IMG/VR virus record: IMGVR_UViG_2563366990_000016
Span: 1 to 8,320 of that record
DNA: 8,320 bases
Origin: a virus
Lineage: Duplodnaviria > Heunggongvirae > Uroviricota > Caudoviricetes
Strand: one strand, 5' to 3'
The notes under the pieces are model-generated. The model was given only the letters and a program-made list of their open reading frames with translations, did no database searches and was not told where the DNA came from. Positions within the stretch are counted from its first letter, which is position 1. Every line of letters starts with the position of its first letter. The translations under genes and the position numbers were made by a program. Below, piece by piece: positions 1-8,320 of this stretch.

Positions 1-1305
1 TATCCCAGGGACGGCATTCAGCAATATTTTTATGCCATCGCTGAAATTGATGAAGACGGCAACGTGACTGACCTGCGCCCCAGAGGAACCCCGGAAGAGC
101 GCCGCAGTCTGGACGCCCTGAAAAAACACGAGAAATCACGCAACCACCCGGACGCAACGCTGAAAGAAAAGGGCTTCACACAGTTAAGCAGCGCCACCAC
201 CAGTACATCAGAGACACAGGCAGCCACGCCAAAGGCTATAAAGATCGCCATGGACAACGCCGATGGCCGGCTTGCGAAAAACCGCAATGGTGAGGACATC
301 CCCAACAAAGAGCTGTTCCTGATCAACGTGGGCGCACCACGCGTTTATGCAAAAGACGGGTACGTGGGTGAAGCAGGGCAACGCTGGACAACAGAACAAT
401 TCGTGGAATGGCTGAATGAGCGTGGCGCCTTCAGACCAGGACTCTGGATATTCAAAGCCAATATTTCACTTTCCCGGCACAGCGTGCTCACTGATACGGG
501 CTATGGTGATATCTGCCTTGGAGGCTGCCTTATCGAAGTATCAGGCGACATCAACGGGGGGATCATCAGGATCACAACAGGTCTCGAAAGCCCAAACCCT
601 GCCGACATGTACCTCCGCACACAGTTCACCGGGGTTGTTTTAAATAAAGGGAAAAGCACCATCTGGTACCGCACTTACACGGACAAAAACAAACCCACAC
701 CACAGGACATCGGCGCACTGCCTGCAAGTGAGTTGTTACCCGCAGGCGTTCCCCTGCCGTGGCCGTCAGACACCCCGCCTGCCGGTTACGCCATCATGGT
801 GGGGCAGACATTCGATAAAGCACGATATCCCCTGCTGGCAAAAGCCTATCCGGATGGTCGTATCCCGGATATGCGTGGCTGGACAATCAAGGGAAAACCT
901 GCCAGCGGTCGTGCGGTATTGTCACAGGAACAGGACGGCATCAAATCCCACACCCACGGGGGGAGTGTCTCAAATACTGACCTTGGCACGAAAACGACCT
1001 CATCATTTGACTACGGAACCAAAACAACCTCTACAAACGGACAACATGAACACAGCGTCCCCCTGAGAAGACAAGATGGCGGAGGCATAAACTTTGACTG
1101 GCTGGATGGTTCATCGTCCGGTTCTCATATTGGTAATGGATACGTTCCTGCCGCAGGTGACCACCAACATACCGTACCCATTGGCGCACACACCCACACG
1201 CTCGCACTGGGTTCACATGGTCACGGCCTGACCATTAACCCCACCGGTAATGCCGAAAACACCGTTAAAAATATTGCATTTAACTACATCGTGAGGCTTG
1301 CATAA
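1..1305 (+). CDS. Phage side tail fibre protein, C-terminal ~435 aa; 5' end lies upstream of the window
   Basis: Frame 1 is open from nt 1 (no stop before the annotated GTG at 64). Translation carries the conserved tail-fibre motif block [52 protein letters not shown] (nt ~745-895), then five His-x-His motifs (HTH, HEH, HQH, HTHTL, HGH; nt ~950-1230) and a C-terminus [11 protein letters not shown], as recalled for P2 gpH / Mu S / lambda Stf-type fibres. Stop TAA at 1303-1305 overlaps the next start. Confidence 0.85.
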
Positions 1306-1901
1306 TGACCTTTAAAATGAGCGAACACCCACAGACAATTAAAATCTACAACCTGTCAGCCGGAACAAATGAATTTATCGGCGAAGGCGATGCCTGGATC
1401 CCTCCGCATACCGGACTGCCTGCGCACTCAACGGACATTGCCCCGCCTGACATTCCTGAAGGACACGTGGCTATCTTTGATGAGGATGAAAACACCTGGC
1501 AGCTCATGGAAGATCACCGGGGTAAAACCGTCTGGCGTCTGGAGTCGGGAAGCGCCTTACTGATTACTGAGCCGGGCCCGTTACCGGAAAACGTGACCAT
1601 AATAAAACCGGACGGGGAGTTCTGCCGCTGGGACGGGTCATCATGGGCTAAGGATGAAGCGGCAGAACAGGCTTACCGGGTGAGCGAGGCGGAGAATAAA
1701 AAACGGGAATTAATACAGGAAGCAACAAATACAATAAACATCCTTCAGGATGCCGTGGATTTAAATATGGCGACCGACGATGAAAGCGCCCTGCTTCCCC
1801 TGTGGAAAAAATACCGGGTATTACTGAGCCGGACAGACACGGGCAACGCGCCGGATATTGTCTGGCCTGAATCCCCTTCGCCGGATCATCACGCAGGCTG
1901 A
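1305..1901 (+). CDS. tfa: Phage tail fibre assembly protein (Tfa / gpG-like chaperone), 198 aa
   Basis: N-terminus [51 protein letters not shown] and the later [26 protein letters not shown] closely resemble Tfa proteins of E. coli prophages as I recall them. ATG overlaps the fibre stop by 1 nt (taATGa), the usual fibre/chaperone coupling. Confidence 0.85.
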
Positions 1902-1912
1902 CCGGAGGCACC

Positions 1913-2638
1913 ATGACGTGGACAAGAAAAACAATCAGCGTCAGCGCTGACATGCCCCCGCTGAGCTGTTCCGTCATCCCCGTCACACCGTGGACTTACG
2001 GGCTGGGACGATATGAAGAATCGGGGGTATATTTAAGCCCTCCGAACGCCATAAACTGGCTGGCCGGGAAAATGGCCGGAAGCCGTGCATCCGGCGACGT
2101 GACCATTATCATGATTGCCGAAAACACCCACGATCTTTTTATACAGTCAATGGCGGCACTGACCGCCGTTCTGCCCGTGCCGGTATTCACGCAGGCACAG
2201 CGCATGGCACAGGCTGCCGCCAGTCTGAGCACTGACAAAATGCAAATCCCGATCACCACCGACACCCTGCCCGCACCTGTGCATCTTTCCGTTGCCACAA
2301 TGCGCAGCGCAGTCAGTGCCGCCCGTGCAGCACAGGCCAGGCAGCTGGCAGCACAACGCCCGGATGCCGCAGGGCTTCGCCGCCAGATAAGCCGCTTTAT
2401 CAGCAGACGGGCTGGCGCACTTGCCGGACTGGAAGAGGGGATCAGAACACTGGCAGAACAGAAGGCGCAGGCCTGGGTATTTCAGTACCGGGGGTATCAC
2501 CGCGCCGCAGCGGCGGCCATGGTGAAGGATATCCCGGCACCGACCGCCGTACATACCGTTGCCGCACTCCTGGCGGCAGACTCATTAACTGAACTGGGGA
2601 AAATGATCCATGAGCCAGACCGCACTGCTCGCCCTTGA
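1913..2638 (+). CDS. Hypothetical protein (241 aa, Ala-rich), co-transcribed with the tail fibre genes; function unknown
   Basis: ATG at 1913 preceded by GGAGG (1904-1908) and only 11 nt after the tfa stop. Same strand as flanking genes. The antisense ORFs across this span are Cys/Arg-rich and look spurious. No motif I can assign. Confidence 0.5.
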   Translation: MTWTRKTISVSADMPPLSCSVIPVTPWTYGLGRYEESGVYLSPPNAINWLAGKMAGSRASGDVTIIMIAENTHDLFIQSMAALTAVLPVPVFTQAQRMAQAAASLSTDKMQIPITTDTLPAPVHLSVATMRSAVSAARAAQARQLAAQRPDAAGLRRQISRFISRRAGALAGLEEGIRTLAEQKAQAWVFQYRGYHRAAAAAMVKDIPAPTAVHTVAALLAADSLTELGKMIHEPDRTARP

Positions 2639-3152
2639 TGGTGAGGGTATTTTCATGCAGAACATGGTGATTTCGCCCTCGATGCAGTTCCAGGAAAAGG
2701 ACCAGTCCGGCCAGACATCGAGCACCGCGAACGCCGAGCAGGGCATCAAGGCCAAAGAGCTTCGCGTAACCGGGATGATCACCTTTGACAATGAGCGGGC
2801 CCTTCAGCGCATTTTCCAGCTGGCCTCTGCCACCACCGGGGACGGTGCCCTGAAAGTTTACCGTATCGCAAACGCCACCGCTGCCGCCATTAACTTTCGT
2901 GAAGGGACATTTTCCGGGCAGATAGACGCACAGCAGCAGACCGACCGCCTCGCCTGGCAGGTCAGCTTCACATTACGCGAAAGACGAAGCGTACCGGAAA
3001 AACGCCAGGCACGCGCCACCCCCGCCAGCAGCCGTAAACAGACGCCGCAGACGCCCGGCGCAAAAGGCGGGACCGTGGCCGACGAAACACCGGAGAAAAT
3101 GACCTGGTTCGAAGAAAAGGTCCTCAAACCCGTCAATGATGCGCTGGAGTAA
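2610..3152 (+). CDS. Hypothetical protein (180 aa): ~120-aa N-terminal domain plus a charged, Pro/Gln/Lys/Arg-rich C-terminal tail; function unknown
   Basis: ATG at 2610 lies inside the 3' end of the previous ORF (29-nt overlap, different frame) with a purine-rich stretch GGGGAAAA upstream. Stop TAA at 3150-3152 is 2 nt before the next ATG, consistent with translational coupling. Confidence 0.5.
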   Translation: MSQTALLALDGEGIFMQNMVISPSMQFQEKDQSGQTSSTANAEQGIKAKELRVTGMITFDNERALQRIFQLASATTGDGALKVYRIANATAAAINFREGTFSGQIDAQQQTDRLAWQVSFTLRERRSVPEKRQARATPASSRKQTPQTPGAKGGTVADETPEKMTWFEEKVLKPVNDALE

Positions 3153-3154
3153 CC

Positions 3155-4828
3155 ATGAACCCCACTAAACGTCTGTTACTGGGTAACGACACCATTCAGC
3201 TGGTCAGTTGTTCCGTCATGCTTGAGCTGAACGCGTGCGGACGCGGATTTATCACAGCCAGAACAGAGCAGAACTACACCGGGCGCCCCGTTCGTCTCGA
3301 TATCGGATACGGAAACGACCTGGTGCGCTGGTTTACCGGATACGTTGAACGCAGCCAGCCCGCTGAAAACGGCTCGGTGCGGCTTCTGATTCGTGAAATG
3401 GCGGGGATCCTTGATCACCCCTTCCCCTGTTCATTTCAGCACCCGACAATGCGCACGGTCACACAGTGGCTGAGTGAGACCAGCGGGCTGGAAATCATCC
3501 TGCCGGACAACGCGGCTTACACTGACAGACCCGTTCCGCATTTCACACACAGCGGCACGGGCTACGAACTGCTGGCCAGTCTGGGGCGTATTTTCTCCGT
3601 ACCGGATTACATCTGGCATCCGTTACCGGACGGCGGCATTATGGCCGCTGCTGCCGCGCAGGGGATGTTTTCCGGTCGCCCCGTCACCATCCCGCACGAG
3701 TTCAGCCAGGCATCAACGGGCGGGCACAGTATGACCCTCCCGATGATTCAGACGCTGCGACCGGGTGTGGAGGTGAACGGTCAGCGCCTGACGATGGTCA
3801 TGCTGGAAGATGACAACATGACCATCACGTGGACACCACGCAATAAAGCCACCGGCGCCCCCCTCCAGAAGTCCCCTTTCCGTCGCCAGGCTGAAAAGGC
3901 CTTCCCTGAACTGGCATCAGGGCTTCACCTGCCCAAACTGGCACGTGTTGAGGCACCGACCGAAGCCGTCAGCGCGGGCAATATTGCCGACCCGTTCAGA
4001 CCCCGCTACGCGGTGAATCTCCAGCTGCTTGACGAGAACGGCAACCCGGCAGCAGATACGCCCGTCTATAACGCCGTTCCCCTCCCCGTTCCCATGGCGG
4101 GCAGTGAGTCCGGCATGTTCCAGTTCCCGCCACCCGGAACCCTGGTGGAAGTGGGATTTGTGGAAGGCCGGGCGGATAAGCCCTTCATCCGCCAGATAAT
4201 GGCAGAGGGCCACAATCTGCCCGACGTGAAGCCGGGCGAGCAGTTGCAGCAACAGCGCGACGGCGTATCGCAGCGCGTGACGGTCGCCGGAGACTGGGAG
4301 CGCCAGACAGACCAGCGGATACAGGAGACATCACGCGAGCGCGTGGTGAGCGCAGACGAGGAAAAGCGGAGCCTGACCAGCCGGGAGACCACCATACAGG
4401 CAACCGACACAACCACCGTCCTGGGCGTATCCACGCTTCAGGCTGGCGCGGTCACCCATATCACTGAAGAGAACTACAGCATCAGCACGGGCGGGCACAT
4501 GATGGTGGTTGCCGGTACCTGTGAGCGCGACGTGGAAGGCGACACCCAGGACACCGTGGGCGGCAGCCTTACCGAAAGGATTAAGGGCGTCCGTCACAGT
4601 ATTGCGCTGGCGCAGAAGCTGGTTGGCGATACGGTGAAGCTGGGAAACGAGGGCATTAATGTACTGACCATGCTGACGGACCTTGCCGATGTGGTGGAAG
4701 AGCTGGCAGATATTACGGCATCACATACCCACCCCAAAACGGGCACGTCTCCGCAGGCCGCACAGTTCAGCCAGGTCGCTCAGGAGTGCCGCCAGCTTAA
4801 AAATAAATATTCACCAATAATCGAGTAA
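3155..4828 (+). CDS. Putative phage baseplate central spike / hub-like protein (557 aa) with gp5/gpV/VgrG-type OB-fold and His-x-His C-terminal tip
   Basis: Residues ~305-355 (nt ~4070-4220) read VPLPVPMAGSESGMFQFPPPGTLVEVGFVEGRADKPFIRQIMAEGHN, matching the recalled OB-fold signature of gp5/gpV/VgrG spike proteins (P..G..V.V.F..G..D.P.I....N). The C-terminal part has Gly/Val/Thr-rich segments (VLGVSTLQAGAVTHI, GGHMMVVAG, VGGSLTERIKGV, VGDTVKLGNEG) and ends ITASHTHPKTGTSP. The N-terminal ~280 aa are unassigned. No Walker A or nuclease motif seen. Confidence 0.55.
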   Translation: MNPTKRLLLGNDTIQLVSCSVMLELNACGRGFITARTEQNYTGRPVRLDIGYGNDLVRWFTGYVERSQPAENGSVRLLIREMAGILDHPFPCSFQHPTMRTVTQWLSETSGLEIILPDNAAYTDRPVPHFTHSGTGYELLASLGRIFSVPDYIWHPLPDGGIMAAAAAQGMFSGRPVTIPHEFSQASTGGHSMTLPMIQTLRPGVEVNGQRLTMVMLEDDNMTITWTPRNKATGAPLQKSPFRRQAEKAFPELASGLHLPKLARVEAPTEAVSAGNIADPFRPRYAVNLQLLDENGNPAADTPVYNAVPLPVPMAGSESGMFQFPPPGTLVEVGFVEGRADKPFIRQIMAEGHNLPDVKPGEQLQQQRDGVSQRVTVAGDWERQTDQRIQETSRERVVSADEEKRSLTSRETTIQATDTTTVLGVSTLQAGAVTHITEENYSISTGGHMMVVAGTCERDVEGDTQDTVGGSLTERIKGVRHSIALAQKLVGDTVKLGNEGINVLTMLTDLADVVEELADITASHTHPKTGTSPQAAQFSQVAQECRQLKNKYSPIIE

Positions 4829-4842
4829 TTATTCACTTTAAC

Positions 4843-4867
4843 AGGCCGCGCAATGTGGCCTTTTTTA
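4843..4867 (+). terminator. Weak rho-independent terminator candidate after the tail operon
   Basis: AGGCC-gcgcaatgt-GGCCT short stem followed by TTTTTTATT (4861-4869), 15 nt after the stop at 4828. The stem is only 4-5 bp, so this is marginal. Confidence 0.35.
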
Positions 4868-4949
4868 TTCCCCCGACAATAAAAAATATTCATCACCGGA
4901 CATCACCCGCCACGAAAAAACCGTCCGCAGCAGAAAAAAAGATGGACGA

Positions 4950-5530
4950 AACGCCCCACGTAATCCCCACGTAAAACGTCGCGTAACGCCACGTAACGAA
5001 GAAATAATCCCGCCAGCCCGATTCGATCCCCTGACATCAGAAAACGATTTCTGCGCCCCAAAATCGCCGCAAATGGCCGGAAATTTTCGGGGGCGACGTA
5101 ACGCGTAAAGTGACGTAATCGGCGCTACCCCGCACACGCCTCCGGTATTTGTGTACGATAAATTTTGCAAATCGAAAGGGGTGCAAAACACCCCTCCAGG
5201 GCGCGCCATTACTGAGGTTTTCCCTTCTGAATGGTTTTGCACTTTGTGCAAGGTTTTGCAAAAGTGTGCAAAAACTCCGGCTTTCTGAGGATCCCGAAAA
5301 ATTTTAATGCACTGAATAACAAGAGATTTTTAAAATTACGTCACGATCGAAGATCTGAAAAAGGATCCGGTGACGAAAACGGAAAAATCAGGAAAACCAG
5401 AACTGGCGCGGCCTGGCGGGGAGTGGCAGCAAAAATCACTTTTGCACACTTTTGCACAACTGCTCCGAAAAAGGATGGCGAAGGGGAAGGAAAACAGCCG
5501 GATCATCCGTTGCACGTAACGGACGTAAAA
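4950..5530. repeat. Repeat-dense non-coding region: array of (C/G)ACGTAA heptamers, TTTTGCA(C/A) palindromes and phased A-tracts
   Basis: (C/G)ACGTAA at 4957, 4968, 4980, 4990 (spacing 10-12 bp), 5095, 5102, 5112, 5338 (inverted), 5513, 5522. TTTTGCA / TGCAAAA at 5163, 5182, 5235, 5247, 5254 (perfect palindrome TTTTGCAAAA 5254-5263), 5268, and a tandem CTTTTGCACA x2 at 5439-5458. Hairpin AGGGGTG-caaaa-CACCCCT at 5176-5195. A5-7 tracts roughly every 10-11 bp at 5372-5400. No convincing ORF. Confidence 0.5.
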
Positions 5531-5538
5531 GGTAAATT
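5510..5538 (+). promoter_or_regulatory. Putative sigma70 promoter for hok-like unit 1
   Basis: TTGCAC (5510-5515), 17-nt spacer, TAAATT (5533-5538), placed just 5' of where the duplicated unit begins (~5540). Pattern match only. Confidence 0.4.
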
Positions 5539-5690
5539 ACGCGCGGGTGCCTTTCGGCTGACGGCTGGAAGGAATACCTGAAGGCCGGATGTGAAAAGGC
5601 CCCGAGTCAACTAACGTTAACCCGAGGCCCTGACACTTCCTACCTGACAAGTGGAAGGTTAGCGCCTCCCTGTAAAAGGAGTCAAGCGCT

Positions 5691-5831
5691 ATGCCGCAAA
5701 AAACGATCATAGTGAGCATTTTATGCATAACTATTTTGATGATTGTCTGGATGATACACAAGTCACCGTGTGAGTTCAGGCTTAACATCATGTGGTCACA
5801 ATTTGCGGCGTTCTTGCAGTGTAAACAGTAA
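5691..5831 (+). CDS. hok: Hok/Gef-family type I toxin, HokA/PndA-like small membrane peptide (46 aa), copy 1
   Basis: Not in the ORF track (too short). AAGGAG at 5677-5682 sits 8 nt before ATG 5691. Translation MPQKTIIVSILCITILMIVWMIHKSPCEFRLNIMWSQFAAFLQCKQ has the Hok architecture: N-terminal MPQK, one hydrophobic helix, then K-S-x-C-E and AAFL-x-CK, resembling HokA/PndA as recalled. A ~145-nt leader precedes it. Confidence 0.75.
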   Translation: MPQKTIIVSILCITILMIVWMIHKSPCEFRLNIMWSQFAAFLQCKQ

Positions 5832-5921
5832 GAAACCGCAGCGGGGGTGAAAGCCCCCGCTATCCGGTTGCCGGGTTCGGTCGATATGGCACCCCTTTCT
5901 CCATTGGATTACAGACGTATT

Positions 5922-5947
5922 TGCCCGCAATATGCGGGCGTTTTTTT
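5922..5947 (+). terminator. Rho-independent terminator of hok-like unit 1
   Basis: GCCCGCA-ata-TGCGGGC stem-loop (5923-5939) followed by GTTTTTTT (5940-5947). Confidence 0.65.
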
Positions 5948-5964
5948 ACCGTCCCCCTCAAGCA

Positions 5965-5993
5965 TTGCGCACACAAAGGGAAATCAGTACATT
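5965..5993 (+). promoter_or_regulatory. Putative sigma70 promoter for hok-like unit 2
   Basis: TTGCGC (5965-5970), 17-nt spacer, TACATT (5988-5993), just 5' of the second unit. Confidence 0.4.
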
Positions 5994-6148
5994 ACACGCG
6001 GGTGCCTTTCGGCTGATGGCTGGAAGGATTACCTGAAGGCCGGATGTGGAAAGGCCCCGGAGTCAACTTTAATGTTAACCCGAGGCCCTGACCATCTACC
6101 CTAAGCAAGTGGAAGGTTAGCGCCTCCCTGTAAAAGGAGTCAAGCGCT

Positions 6149-6289
6149 ATGCCGCAAAAAACGATCATCGTGAGCATTTTATGCTTAACCATGTTGTTGA
6201 CTGTCTGGATGATACACCGTTCTCCGTGTGAGTTCAGACTTAACATCATGTGGTCAGAATTTGCGGCGTTCTTGCAGTGTAAACCGTAA
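6149..6289 (+). CDS. hok: Hok/Gef-family type I toxin, HokA/PndA-like (46 aa), copy 2
   Basis: AAGGAG then ATG at 6149. Translation MPQKTIIVSILCLTMLLTVWMIHRSPCEFRLNIMWSEFAAFLQCKP, a handful of substitutions from copy 1. Not in the ORF track. Confidence 0.75.
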   Translation: MPQKTIIVSILCLTMLLTVWMIHRSPCEFRLNIMWSEFAAFLQCKP

Positions 6290-6486
6290 GAAACCGCAGC
6301 GGGGGTGAAAGCCCCCGCTATCCGGTTGCCAAAGGTTCGGTCGAAAGTCGCACCCTCACACAAAAGGCACAAAGAAAAATAAATATCCTCCGGCATAGCC
6401 GGAGGTTTTTCAAATGCGCCTATAAGGCTCTCTTACCAGCCGCGCCCTAACAGGCGCACACGATCTGACATTTGCATCCAACTTCG

Positions 6487-6945
6487 TTACTTACGGCCCG
6501 TAAACGGGCTGCCCGGATAGGGAATCGATAACTGCTCTCCCATTTTATCCTCTTCAAGCTGGTGCTTTATGTAATCCTGTATCTTCGCCGTGTTCTTACC
6601 CACCGTATCGACGTAGTACCCTCTGCACCAGAACTCTCTGTTCCTGTATTTGAATTTCAAATCACCAAACTGCTCGTAAAGCATCAGACTGCTTTTCCCT
6701 TTCAGATATCCCATAAAGCCGGATACACTCATTTTGGGCGGGATCTCCACAAGCATATGGATATGATCTGCACAGCATTCAGCTTCAAGAATCCGTACGC
6801 TTTTCCACTCACACAGCTTTCTCAAAATACTGCCTATTGCTCTACGCTTCTCTCTGTAGAACACTTGTCTTCGGTATTTTGGCGCAAAAACTATGTGATA
6901 TTTACAGTTCCATCGGGTGTGCGCTAAGCTCTTTTCGTTCCCCAT
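6487..6945 (-). CDS. tnpA: IS200 transposase TnpA (Y1 HUH transposase), 152 aa
   Basis: Translation from the internal Met (MGNEKSLAHTRWNCKYHIVFAPKYRRQ...HIHMLVEIPPK...GYYVDTVGKNTAKIQDYIKHQLEEDK) carries the HUH motif (HIH) and the catalytic tyrosine region, and matches IS200 TnpA as I recall it. The annotated ORF start at 6996 is an upstream extension. The ATG codon spans 6943-6945 and is preceded by GGGGG. Confidence 0.9.
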   Translation of the reverse strand: MGNEKSLAHTRWNCKYHIVFAPKYRRQVFYREKRRAIGSILRKLCEWKSVRILEAECCADHIHMLVEIPPKMSVSGFMGYLKGKSSLMLYEQFGDLKFKYRNREFWCRGYYVDTVGKNTAKIQDYIKHQLEEDKMGEQLSIPYPGSPFTGRK

Positions 6946-6950
6946 TGGGA

Positions 6951-7020
6951 CCCCCTTTTGATTTCTTGTTTGACACTTGCAGTTGCCAGACCGCAAGGTG
7001 TTTTAACAAATCAAAAGGGG
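6951..7020 (-). promoter_or_regulatory. IS200 5' leader stem-loop that sequesters the tnpA ribosome-binding site
   Basis: CCCCCTTTTGATTT (6951-6964) is complementary to AAATCAAAAGGGG (7008-7020). The arm next to the start codon contains the GGGGG Shine-Dalgarno on the minus strand. This fits the known translational repression structure of IS200. Confidence 0.5.
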
Positions 7021-7094
7021 TTTTAATAACTGGCTCAAAGCTGAAAGCTTTCCGGAACCCCCAGCCTAGCTGGGGGTTTTCTGTGCACAACAAA

Positions 7095-7123
7095 GCCCGC
7101 AGCGTAAAAACTGCGGGCTTTTT
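7095..7123 (+). terminator. Rho-independent terminator-like hairpin just outside the IS200 left end; possibly the displaced terminator of hok-like unit 2
   Basis: GCCCGCAG-cgtaaaaa-CTGCGGGC followed by TTTTT (7119-7123). The stem sequence GCCCGCA is the same as in the unit-1 terminator at 5923-5939. Confidence 0.5.
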
Positions 7124-7160
7124 CTATATCTCGAAAATGTGGTCATTGCGTGGACAACAA

Positions 7161-7184
7161 TTGATATAAATCCTTTTATATCAA
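7161..7184. promoter_or_regulatory. Perfect 10-bp inverted repeat in the flk upstream region
   Basis: TTGATATAAA-tcct-TTTATATCAA, ~140 bp upstream of the flk ATG in an AT-rich stretch. Function unknown. Confidence 0.3.
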
Positions 7185-7324
7185 AATGTTAAATAATTTT
7201 CATTTTTCATCAACAAGGATTTTCACGTTTGTGTTACCTGTATGAGACGAGAGTTAACCGGACAAGTGTGCCATAATCTCGCGGCCAGGCATACTTGCGA
7301 AGATTTCAGGTATAAGGATACGTA

Positions 7325-8320
7325 ATGATACAACCTATTTCCGGCCCTCCTCCTGGGCAACCACCAGGTCAGGGAGATAACCTGCCGTCTGGCGCGGGCA
7401 ATCAGCCTTTATCCAGTCAGCAACGTACTTCGCTGGAAAGCTTAATGACGAAAGTGACCTCACTGACGCAACAGCAAAGAGCAGAACTGTGGGCGGGTAT
7501 CAGGCACGATATTGGTCTGTCGGGAGATTCACCGCTGCTTTCGCGTCACTTCCCTGCCGCTGAGCACAATCTGGCGCAACGTCTGCTGGCCGCGCAAAAA
7601 AGCCATTCTGCCCGCCAGCTTTTAGCGCAATTAGGGGAGTATTTACGTCTGGGGAATAATCGTCAGGCGGTCACGGATTATATCCGTCATAACTTTGGTC
7701 AGACGCCGCTGAATCAGCTCTCACCGGAGCAATTAAAAACCATTCTAACCCTGTTGCAGGAAGGGAAGATGGTTATTCCGCAACCGCAGCAGCGCGAGGC
7801 GACCGACCGTCCGTTATTACCGGCGGAGCACAATGCGCTCAAACAGCTGGTGACCAAACTTGCGGCGGCAACGGGAGAACCCAGCAAACAGATCTGGCAA
7901 TCGATGCTGGAACTTTCCGGGGTGAAAGATGGCGAGTTAATTCCAGCGAAACTGTTTAACCATCTGGTGACCTGGCTGCAGGCGCGTCAGACGCTAAGCC
8001 AGCAAAATACGCCGACGCTTGAATCACTACAGATGGCGCTGAAACAACCTTTAGATGCCAGTGAACTGGCGGCGTTATCGGCATATATCCAGCAAAAATA
8101 TGGCCTTTCTGCGCAATCATCGCTTTCTTCTGCCCAGGCCGAGGATATTCTTAATCAGCTTTATCAACGGCGGGTTAAAGGGATTGATCCGCGTGATATG
8201 CAACCGCTGCTTAATCCTTTTCCACCGATGATGGACACGTTGCAAAATATGGCAACGCGTCCCGCGCTGTGGATACTGTTAGTCGCGATTATCCTGATGC
8301 TGGTCTGGCTGGTTCGTTAA
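7325..8320 (+). CDS. flk: Flagellar regulator Flk-like protein (331 aa), C-terminally membrane-anchored
   Basis: AAGGA at 7311-7315 precedes ATG 7325; stop TAA is the last codon of the window. Pro/Gln-rich N-terminus MIQPISGPPPGQPPGQ and a single C-terminal hydrophobic helix (ALWILLVAIILMLVWLV) match what I recall of enterobacterial Flk. The identification is from memory and not verified. Confidence 0.65.
   Translation: MIQPISGPPPGQPPGQGDNLPSGAGNQPLSSQQRTSLESLMTKVTSLTQQQRAELWAGIRHDIGLSGDSPLLSRHFPAAEHNLAQRLLAAQKSHSARQLLAQLGEYLRLGNNRQAVTDYIRHNFGQTPLNQLSPEQLKTILTLLQEGKMVIPQPQQREATDRPLLPAEHNALKQLVTKLAAATGEPSKQIWQSMLELSGVKDGELIPAKLFNHLVTWLQARQTLSQQNTPTLESLQMALKQPLDASELAALSAYIQQKYGLSAQSSLSSAQAEDILNQLYQRRVKGIDPRDMQPLLNPFPPMMDTLQNMATRPALWILLVAIILMLVWLVR

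Follow-up and report, generated by a model that had tools for sequence, protein, structure and literature searches.

The 8,320-nucleotide (nt) stretch of DNA analysed here (the window; positions 1 to 8,320 of IMG/VR record IMGVR_UViG_2563366990_000016, a virus of the Caudoviricetes) carries at 3155-4828, on the plus strand, a gene that very probably encodes the complete central spike complex of an HP1-like contractile phage tail, with hub, spike and apex in one chain. It is the last tail-operon gene of an HP1-like prophage of the P2 family (Peduoviridae) in an Escherichia-type chromosome. The six-frame list of open reading frames in the window contains an intact frame of 557 amino acids (aa), running from ATG to stop at exactly these positions. 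A GGAG lies 6 nt 5' of the ATG, 2 nt separate the ATG from the stop of the preceding 180-aa orf34-type gene, and M1 is kept in at least 90% of 118 homologues. An earlier sequence-only reading of this gene had offered a fused hub-spike as one option, and this option is borne out by the folds of both modules, which were found in one chain. The gene and its main parts are as follows.

3155-4828, plus strand: hub-spike gene, orthologue of HP1 orf35, read as a fused baseplate hub, central spike and apex of 557 aa.
3155-3859, plus strand: hub module (residues 1-~235), a compact version of the gp27 / Mu gp44 / P2 gpD fold.
3860-3925, plus strand: junction and N-terminal helix of the spike (residues 236-257), with a conserved FPELAxGxHLPK; P251, E252 and H258 are invariant.
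3926-4210, plus strand: probable OB-fold domain (residues ~258-352), placed by Pfam, TIGRFAM and PDB profile matches and by model strands.
4211-4654, plus strand: extended region (residues ~353-500), predicted to form an intertwined triple-stranded β-helix in the trimer.

The structural evidence comes from an AlphaFold2 monomer model. In this model the N-terminal module has a gp27-like hub fold with tube-like β-barrel domains. A Foldseek comparison with viral models returned proteins named 'Phage protein D', '43 kDa tail protein' and 'XkdQ', and a weak profile match to phrog_196 'baseplate hub' (expect value, E, 1.9e-5) was also found. The N-terminal domain had been left unassigned from sequence. 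At the level of sequence profiles this stands, as residues 1-242 have no Pfam match even at E<=10; at the level of structure the domain is clearly assigned as a hub. A Cys pair (C19/C28) singled out earlier in this module is not conserved, with Cys present in 16/118 homologues at the first position and 60/118 at the second, and a Cys19/Cys28 disulfide was dropped from consideration for this reason.

The missing Pfam family for residues 1-242 would also suit a gpV-type spike whose N-terminal 280 aa are an added cargo, enzymatic or receptor-binding domain, which was the other option raised from sequence. Additional domains are indeed known from evolved VgrGs and from some phage spikes. However, no enzyme or adhesin fold is among the top matches, relatives encode the N-terminal module as a stand-alone gene of ~230 aa directly upstream of the spike gene, and a cargo domain at this place would leave the prophage without a hub. 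An added domain of this kind is extremely improbable.

Residues ~240-557 are a gpV/gp45-type spike with a probable OB-fold, a predicted β-helix and an invariant HxH motif. The sequence-only reading had placed an OB-fold at residues ~305-355, and three kinds of evidence agree with it. The first is a match to Pfam Phage_base_V at residues 310-345, which at 18.6 bits for the whole protein and 20.5 bits for the fragment lies below the cut-off of 23.8 and therefore does not prove an OB-fold by itself. The second is a profile of 118 non-redundant full-length homologues (A1), whose PDB matches to Salmonella VgrS (9mlp_A, E 7e-5), T4 gp5 (E 2e-4) and Pseudomonas aeruginosa VgrG1 (E 6e-4) run across the OB-fold and the β-helix, at E values of 7e-5 to 1e-3 in all. 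The third is the model, which has junction helices at residues 241-249 and 251-254 followed by β-barrel strands at 261-268, 286-292, 305-309, 330-335 and 343-348. TIGR01646 (VgrG) also matches at residues 313-362 with E 0.0012, far below its cut-off. Residues ~353-500 are extended in the monomer model and match the β-helix of T4 gp5 and VgrG1 with the A1 profile (E 2e-4 to 1e-3), which suggests that they would form an intertwined β-helix in the trimer. The Gly/Val-rich character ascribed to the C-terminus is real but mild, with 10% G and 11% V there compared with 8.4% and 7.5% overall. The whole chain aligns over 270-353 residues with fused hub-spikes, namely AlgoCIS Alg8 (7aef_q), the spike of a Streptomyces contractile injection system (9gtr_q), VgrS (9mlp_A), VgrG1 (4uhv_A), Afp8 and Pvc8.

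Family membership and gene order place the protein in a phage tail. It matches PHROG 2258 'baseplate protein' with E 2e-241, residues 1-557 aligning to profile positions 1-544 of 544. A tblastn search of phage genomes found homologues at the same genome end in 75 records, including HP1, HP2, K139 (orf39), Kappa (kp45), phiO18P, F108, ESSI-2 and SI7. Identity is 57-66% with enterobacterial phage orthologues and 38%, over 100% of the query, with HP1 orf35 (UniProt P51739) and HP2. HP1 orf35 and its orthologues have the same length as the window protein, the invariant HxH, the flanking helices and the position past orf33 and orf34, and no architectural difference separates them from it. In HP1 the order is tape measure, orf28 (W-like), orf29 (J), orf30 (I), fibre, fibre assembly, orf33, orf34 and orf35, which closes the late operon. 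The same order is kept, with P2-type capsid genes in front, in a complete Escherichia coli prophage (N51) that is 97.5% identical to the window; its orthologue of the hub-spike is labelled 'hypothetical protein' in RefSeq. This complete prophage also encodes gpR, gpS, sheath (DUF2586), tube (HP1 Orf24), chaperone and tape measure proteins, as well as DUF2590 (W), Baseplate_J and Tail_P2_I. It has no separate gpD or gpV homologue, so the fused protein is the sole candidate for hub and spike. A spike gene after the fibre genes had been thought an unusual order. Since the order is conserved in HP1 and in the E. coli prophage, it is instead the norm for HP1-type phages, and the homologues in K139, Kappa, phiO18P, F108 and others lie at the same genome end. 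The tail genes of the window upstream of the hub-spike, and the end of the operon, are listed here.

64-1305, plus strand: tail-fibre gene, with Pfam Phage_fiber_2 and Collar domains.
1305-1901, plus strand: fibre-assembly (chaperone) gene, Caudo_TAP.
1913-2638, plus strand: 241-aa homologue of HP1 orf33, phrog_1677, function unknown.
2610-3152, plus strand: 180-aa orf34-type gene, Pfam PF25759 'HP1 ORF34 baseplate complex protein' (E 4e-54).
4843-4869, plus strand: terminator-like hairpin and T-run at the end of the tail operon, 15 nt past the stop codon, from a consensus scan only.

The 180-aa protein encoded directly upstream (2610-3152, plus strand) belongs to the orf34 family and has a tube-protein fold. 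It is probably a tube initiator or adaptor, similar to gpU or the 'ripcord', that sits on the hub. A gpU-like role was proposed for orf34, with doubt, in PMC10612066 (Table S1). In P2 the last structural gene of the tail operon is likewise the hub gene, D, preceded by the tube-initiator-like gene U as orf35 is by orf34, and the orf34-orf35 pair is the functional counterpart of P2 U-D plus V.

The domain order of the protein is that of VgrG, Afp8 and Pvc8, and some homologues have been named automatically as 'VgrG1' or 'Gp5/Type VI secretion system Vgr protein OB-fold domain-containing protein'. These points would fit a protein of non-phage origin, either a VgrG of a bacterial type VI secretion system or the spike of a tailocin or an extracellular contractile injection system. 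However, the VgrG models score far too low (TIGR03361, 14.0 bits for a cut-off of 186; TIGR01646, 17.9 for 122), and the genes around this one encode a tail fibre, a fibre chaperone and homologues of HP1 orf33 and orf34. Complete P2-family prophages that carry capsid, terminase and lysis genes make up the related loci, and HP1, K139 and phiO18P have been isolated as phages. Hcp and TssB/C genes are missing, as is a PAAR protein, and the window protein carries its own HxH. A secretion or injection system origin is very unlikely on this evidence.

The hub and the spike are joined in some members of the family and separate in others. In Vibrio phage 1.202.O (Canoevirus) the hub-spike region consists of two overlapping genes: gp40 (229 aa) has 34% identity over residues 36-226 of the window protein, and gp41 (231 aa) has 38% identity over residues 243-454. 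Both halves of this split version are thus homologous (the spike half falls in PHROG 4011) and lie at the same genome position as the window gene. A profile search of 1.84 billion representatives found 1008 relatives, and the best 150 of these, which are representatives of clusters at 50% identity, were classed by local hmmsearch.

Full-length fused: 10/150.
Fused with a different tip: 4/150.
Hub-only, 223-246 aa: 28/150.
Spike-only, mostly 295-400 aa and starting at profile position ~236-245: 75/150.
Fragments or other: 33/150.

The fused form is therefore a minority state within the family. The split relatives break at residues ~226-243, which matches the domain boundary in the model. Some stand-alone spikes are much longer than is usual for the family (P0390, 875 aa; P0389, 436 aa; P0375, P0383 and P0408, ~400 aa). 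Two or three separate parts of these align with the profile, which points to extra domains or to β-helix segments that are inserted or repeated.

Several results weigh against reading the protein as a hub-spike fusion. The structural support comes from an AlphaFold2 model of a single chain. A Phage_GPD match is absent from residues 1-242 at E<=10. When the family profile was compared by hhalign with the single sequences of the P2 proteins, the probability was 0.4% for gpD and <1% for gpV. No profile reaches its curated threshold, with Phage_base_V at 18.6-20.5 of the required 23.8 bits and the VgrG TIGRFAMs at 14-18 bits against cut-offs of 122-186. A single-sequence phmmer search of the PDB likewise gave only non-significant matches (E >= 0.075), these being to a central spike, Pvc8 and VgrG, and no solved structure of any member of the HP1 orf35 family was found among the PDB searches. 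Because single-sequence templates are too weak for hhalign, we relied on structure comparison. Finally, the window holds only the right end of the prophage, and this copy may or may not belong to a functional phage.

The last ~60 residues form the tip, whose parts are listed below.

4655-4723, plus strand: amphipathic helix before the HxH motif (residues 501-523), with a helix at 503-523 at a predicted local distance difference test score (pLDDT) of 85-90.
4724-4732, plus strand: HxH motif, H524-T-H526, a putative three-fold histidine cage for a metal ion.
Residues 527-534: Pro/Gly loop between the two predicted tip helices.
4757-4825, plus strand: C-terminal helix (residues 535-557), with a helix at 535-555 (pLDDT 81-91) and a conserved ...K-x-K-Y/L-x-P-I-I.

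An SHTHPKTG (residues 523-530, nt 4721-4744) had been described from sequence as terminal and of the kind that coordinates metal at spike tips. The HxH within it is present and invariant, but the motif is not strictly terminal, as 31 residues lie beyond it. H524 and H526 are conserved in 118/118 full-length homologues, and in an alignment of 57 diverse tip segments the two histidines are the only invariant columns (57/57). The pattern of the preceding helix, N-x-L-x-x-L-x-x-L-x-x-V-x-x-L-A, is kept in both fused and stand-alone spikes. HxH lies within the last 60 residues in 66/75 of the stand-alone spikes, usually ~34 residues from the end, after an amphipathic helix and before a segment ending ...L-D/S-P-I-x-E. 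The helix-HxH-helix module is common to the fused proteins and to stand-alone spikes from >60 diverse clusters.

The HxH of P2 gpV holds an Fe ion in a three-fold histidine cage, and where such a motif lies close to the C-terminus it marks the apex, with no separate tip protein needed (bioRxiv 10.1101/2023.02.25.529910; PMC12407873). The gpV cage histidines, H197 and H199, lie 12 residues from the end in a 21-residue apex (the same sources). The family described here departs from this arrangement, which counts against its tip being a gpV-like apex: its HxH has a helix on either side and stops 31 residues short of the C-terminus, while in gpV the distance is 12 residues and the motif lies in a β-structured cone. 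For this reason the HxH could be an internal clamp that keeps the trimer in register within a helical stalk, as in tail fibres, rather than the point that attacks the membrane. In that case the C-terminal helix bundle would be the real tip, or else a separate tip protein that has gone unrecognised. HxH cages are also found along fibres, away from their tips (PMC12407873). In addition, a few relatives replace the HxH segment wholly or have a Cys/His tip, and an extra 65-aa gene lies past the Canoevirus spike gene. On the other side, the Pro/Gly-rich loop of 8 residues that parts the helices and the bridge residues predicted at 524-530 in the model fit a helical hairpin with the HxH at its far end, and such a hairpin would place the putative His cage distally. 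Tip segments of 4/57 relatives match the Pfam model PF18946 'GpV Apex motif' (best E 1.4e-7), although the window protein itself does not match it. No PAAR-like gene is present in HP1-type tail modules (HP1 and the complete E. coli prophage). We favour the hairpin with a distal cage and consider the internal clamp rather unlikely. That the C-terminal ~60 residues are a distinct apex, a six-helix bundle capped by a putative histidine-cage metal site in place of the β-cone of gpV/gp45, is proposed tentatively, as possible rather than probable. A profile of the tip module against the PDB gave only noise (best, Lpp at E 0.67), with no sequence-related solved structure, and DUF6827 gave a weak sub-threshold match (E 0.005-0.008).

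The tip of Canoevirus gp41 is of another type than the helix-HxH-helix of the window protein, with a Cys/His-containing segment (…CTGASICPFMGKPH…). At 6654-7549 of phage 1.202.O, gp41 ends in the Cys/His segment …GVCTGASICPFMGKPHVDVSTTVYAGK and is followed by the additional 65-aa gene, gp42. The Cys-type tip also occurs on some fused proteins (P0342, P0343), and it looks like an alternative tip module of the same spike family.

A working scheme for the complex can be outlined. Three copies would assemble, with the N-terminal modules (residues 1-~235) forming a pseudo-hexameric ring that may nucleate the baseplate wedges (gpW/J/I homologues) and seed the tail tube through a hexamer of the orf34-type tube initiator. 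The C-terminal modules (~240-557) would form a needle that plugs the tube, made of the N-terminal helix, the OB-fold, the intertwined β-helix and the tip. At the tip, three HxH motifs would build a histidine cage for a metal ion, which in P2 gpV is Fe; both the metal and the tip geometry are putative. On sheath contraction the tube would drive the needle through the outer membrane. Since hub, spike and apex are covalently joined, the trimer would have to leave the tube end as one unit, and its release would open a channel for the tape-measure protein and the DNA. Hub and spike are also covalently joined in VgrG, Afp8 and Pvc8. The elements of the scheme with direct support are the folds of the two modules, the family, the synteny, the split/fused modularity and the invariance of the HxH.

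The closest simple tails, those of P2 (gpD and gpV), Mu (gp44 and gp45) and the R2 pyocin (PA0628 and PA0616), share with the window protein the folds of both modules and an HxH in the C-terminus of the spike. The role is also alike, namely to serve a simple contractile tail as its only hub and spike, and the gene stands next to that of a gpU-like tube initiator where the tail operon ends. They differ in having hub and spike on two genes, while the window protein is one chain. Its hub module is smaller (~235 aa, compared with 379-387 aa) and its spike module larger (~320 aa, compared with 197-211 aa), and P2 gpD and gpV have no significant sequence similarity to its family. VgrG/VgrS, Afp8, Pvc8 and AlgoCIS Alg8 have the same domain order in one polypeptide. 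In contrast to the window protein with its own HxH tip, these end in a blunt β-helix with a separate PAAR or PAAR-like cap, are 500-840 aa long with a larger hub, and belong to capsid-free secretion or injection systems.

A hub-spike fusion in HP1 has already been published: HHpred mapped P51739 to P2 gpD in its N-terminal part and to P2 gpV in its C-terminal part (PMC10612066, Table S1, Viruses 2023). In the literature on HP1 orf35 as a baseplate protein, no direct account was found beyond this supplementary table. The new elements are the structural support for both modules, obtained with an enterobacterial orthologue, the census of fused and split forms, the tube-initiator fold of orf34, and the helix-flanked HxH tip of the family, which has no solved relative.

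The remaining observations concern the surroundings of the gene. The orf33 homologue (1913-2638, plus strand) is Ala-rich, has only a weak sub-threshold match to DUF6478, and shares 29 nt with the orf34-like gene. In the Canoevirus relative the fibre gene and the orf34-sized gp39 have no annotated gene between them, and orf33 is therefore probably not a core component of the hub. At 19219-21285 of the E. coli N51 prophage locus the tail-fibre gene is annotated as two partial pseudogenes and the hub-spike gene is intact; because of the pseudogenes, this copy may be fibre-defective.

Downstream of the tail operon, two tandem units of ~455 nt occupy 5532-6440. They are 93-94% identical to each other, each has a terminator-like hairpin, and they lie at the position of Hok/Gef loci in related E. 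coli genomes. Two or three Hok/Gef toxin genes are annotated directly past the last gene of the prophage in related E. coli, and other E. coli with no prophage at the flk locus also have one Hok/Gef gene there. These two facts indicate that the prophage end may lie within a hok-type locus or may have recombined through one. An IS200-type transposase gene at 6487-7078 on the minus strand (Y1_Tnp, E 5e-38) is inserted between the hok repeats and flk, with the Hfq-binding RNA STnc490 of Rfam (146 bits) at its 5' end; flk lies beyond it on the downstream side of the window. The prophage part of the window (1-6356) is 96-98% identical to E. coli prophages. The chromosomal part on the flk/hok side (5527-8320) is only ~92-93% identical to E. 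coli genomes, and at most 76% of the window is covered by any one E. coli genome. This may mean that the host belongs to a divergent lineage of Escherichia, or that the site of the prophage is one that complete E. coli genomes do not represent.

These findings leave the current understanding of contractile tails unchanged. They have a use in annotation, as the RefSeq E. coli orthologues called 'hypothetical protein' can be named baseplate hub-central spike fusion proteins, and the gene before them a tube initiator. The helix-HxH-helix tip is a reasonable target for structural work. If the distinct apex is true, then together with the covalent fusion it would make a phage 'three-in-one' spike complex that exits the tube as a single trimer. 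In this one family of phage tails, hub and spike occur naturally in both states, joined and separate, and a fusion of the VgrG type is thus not confined to secretion systems.

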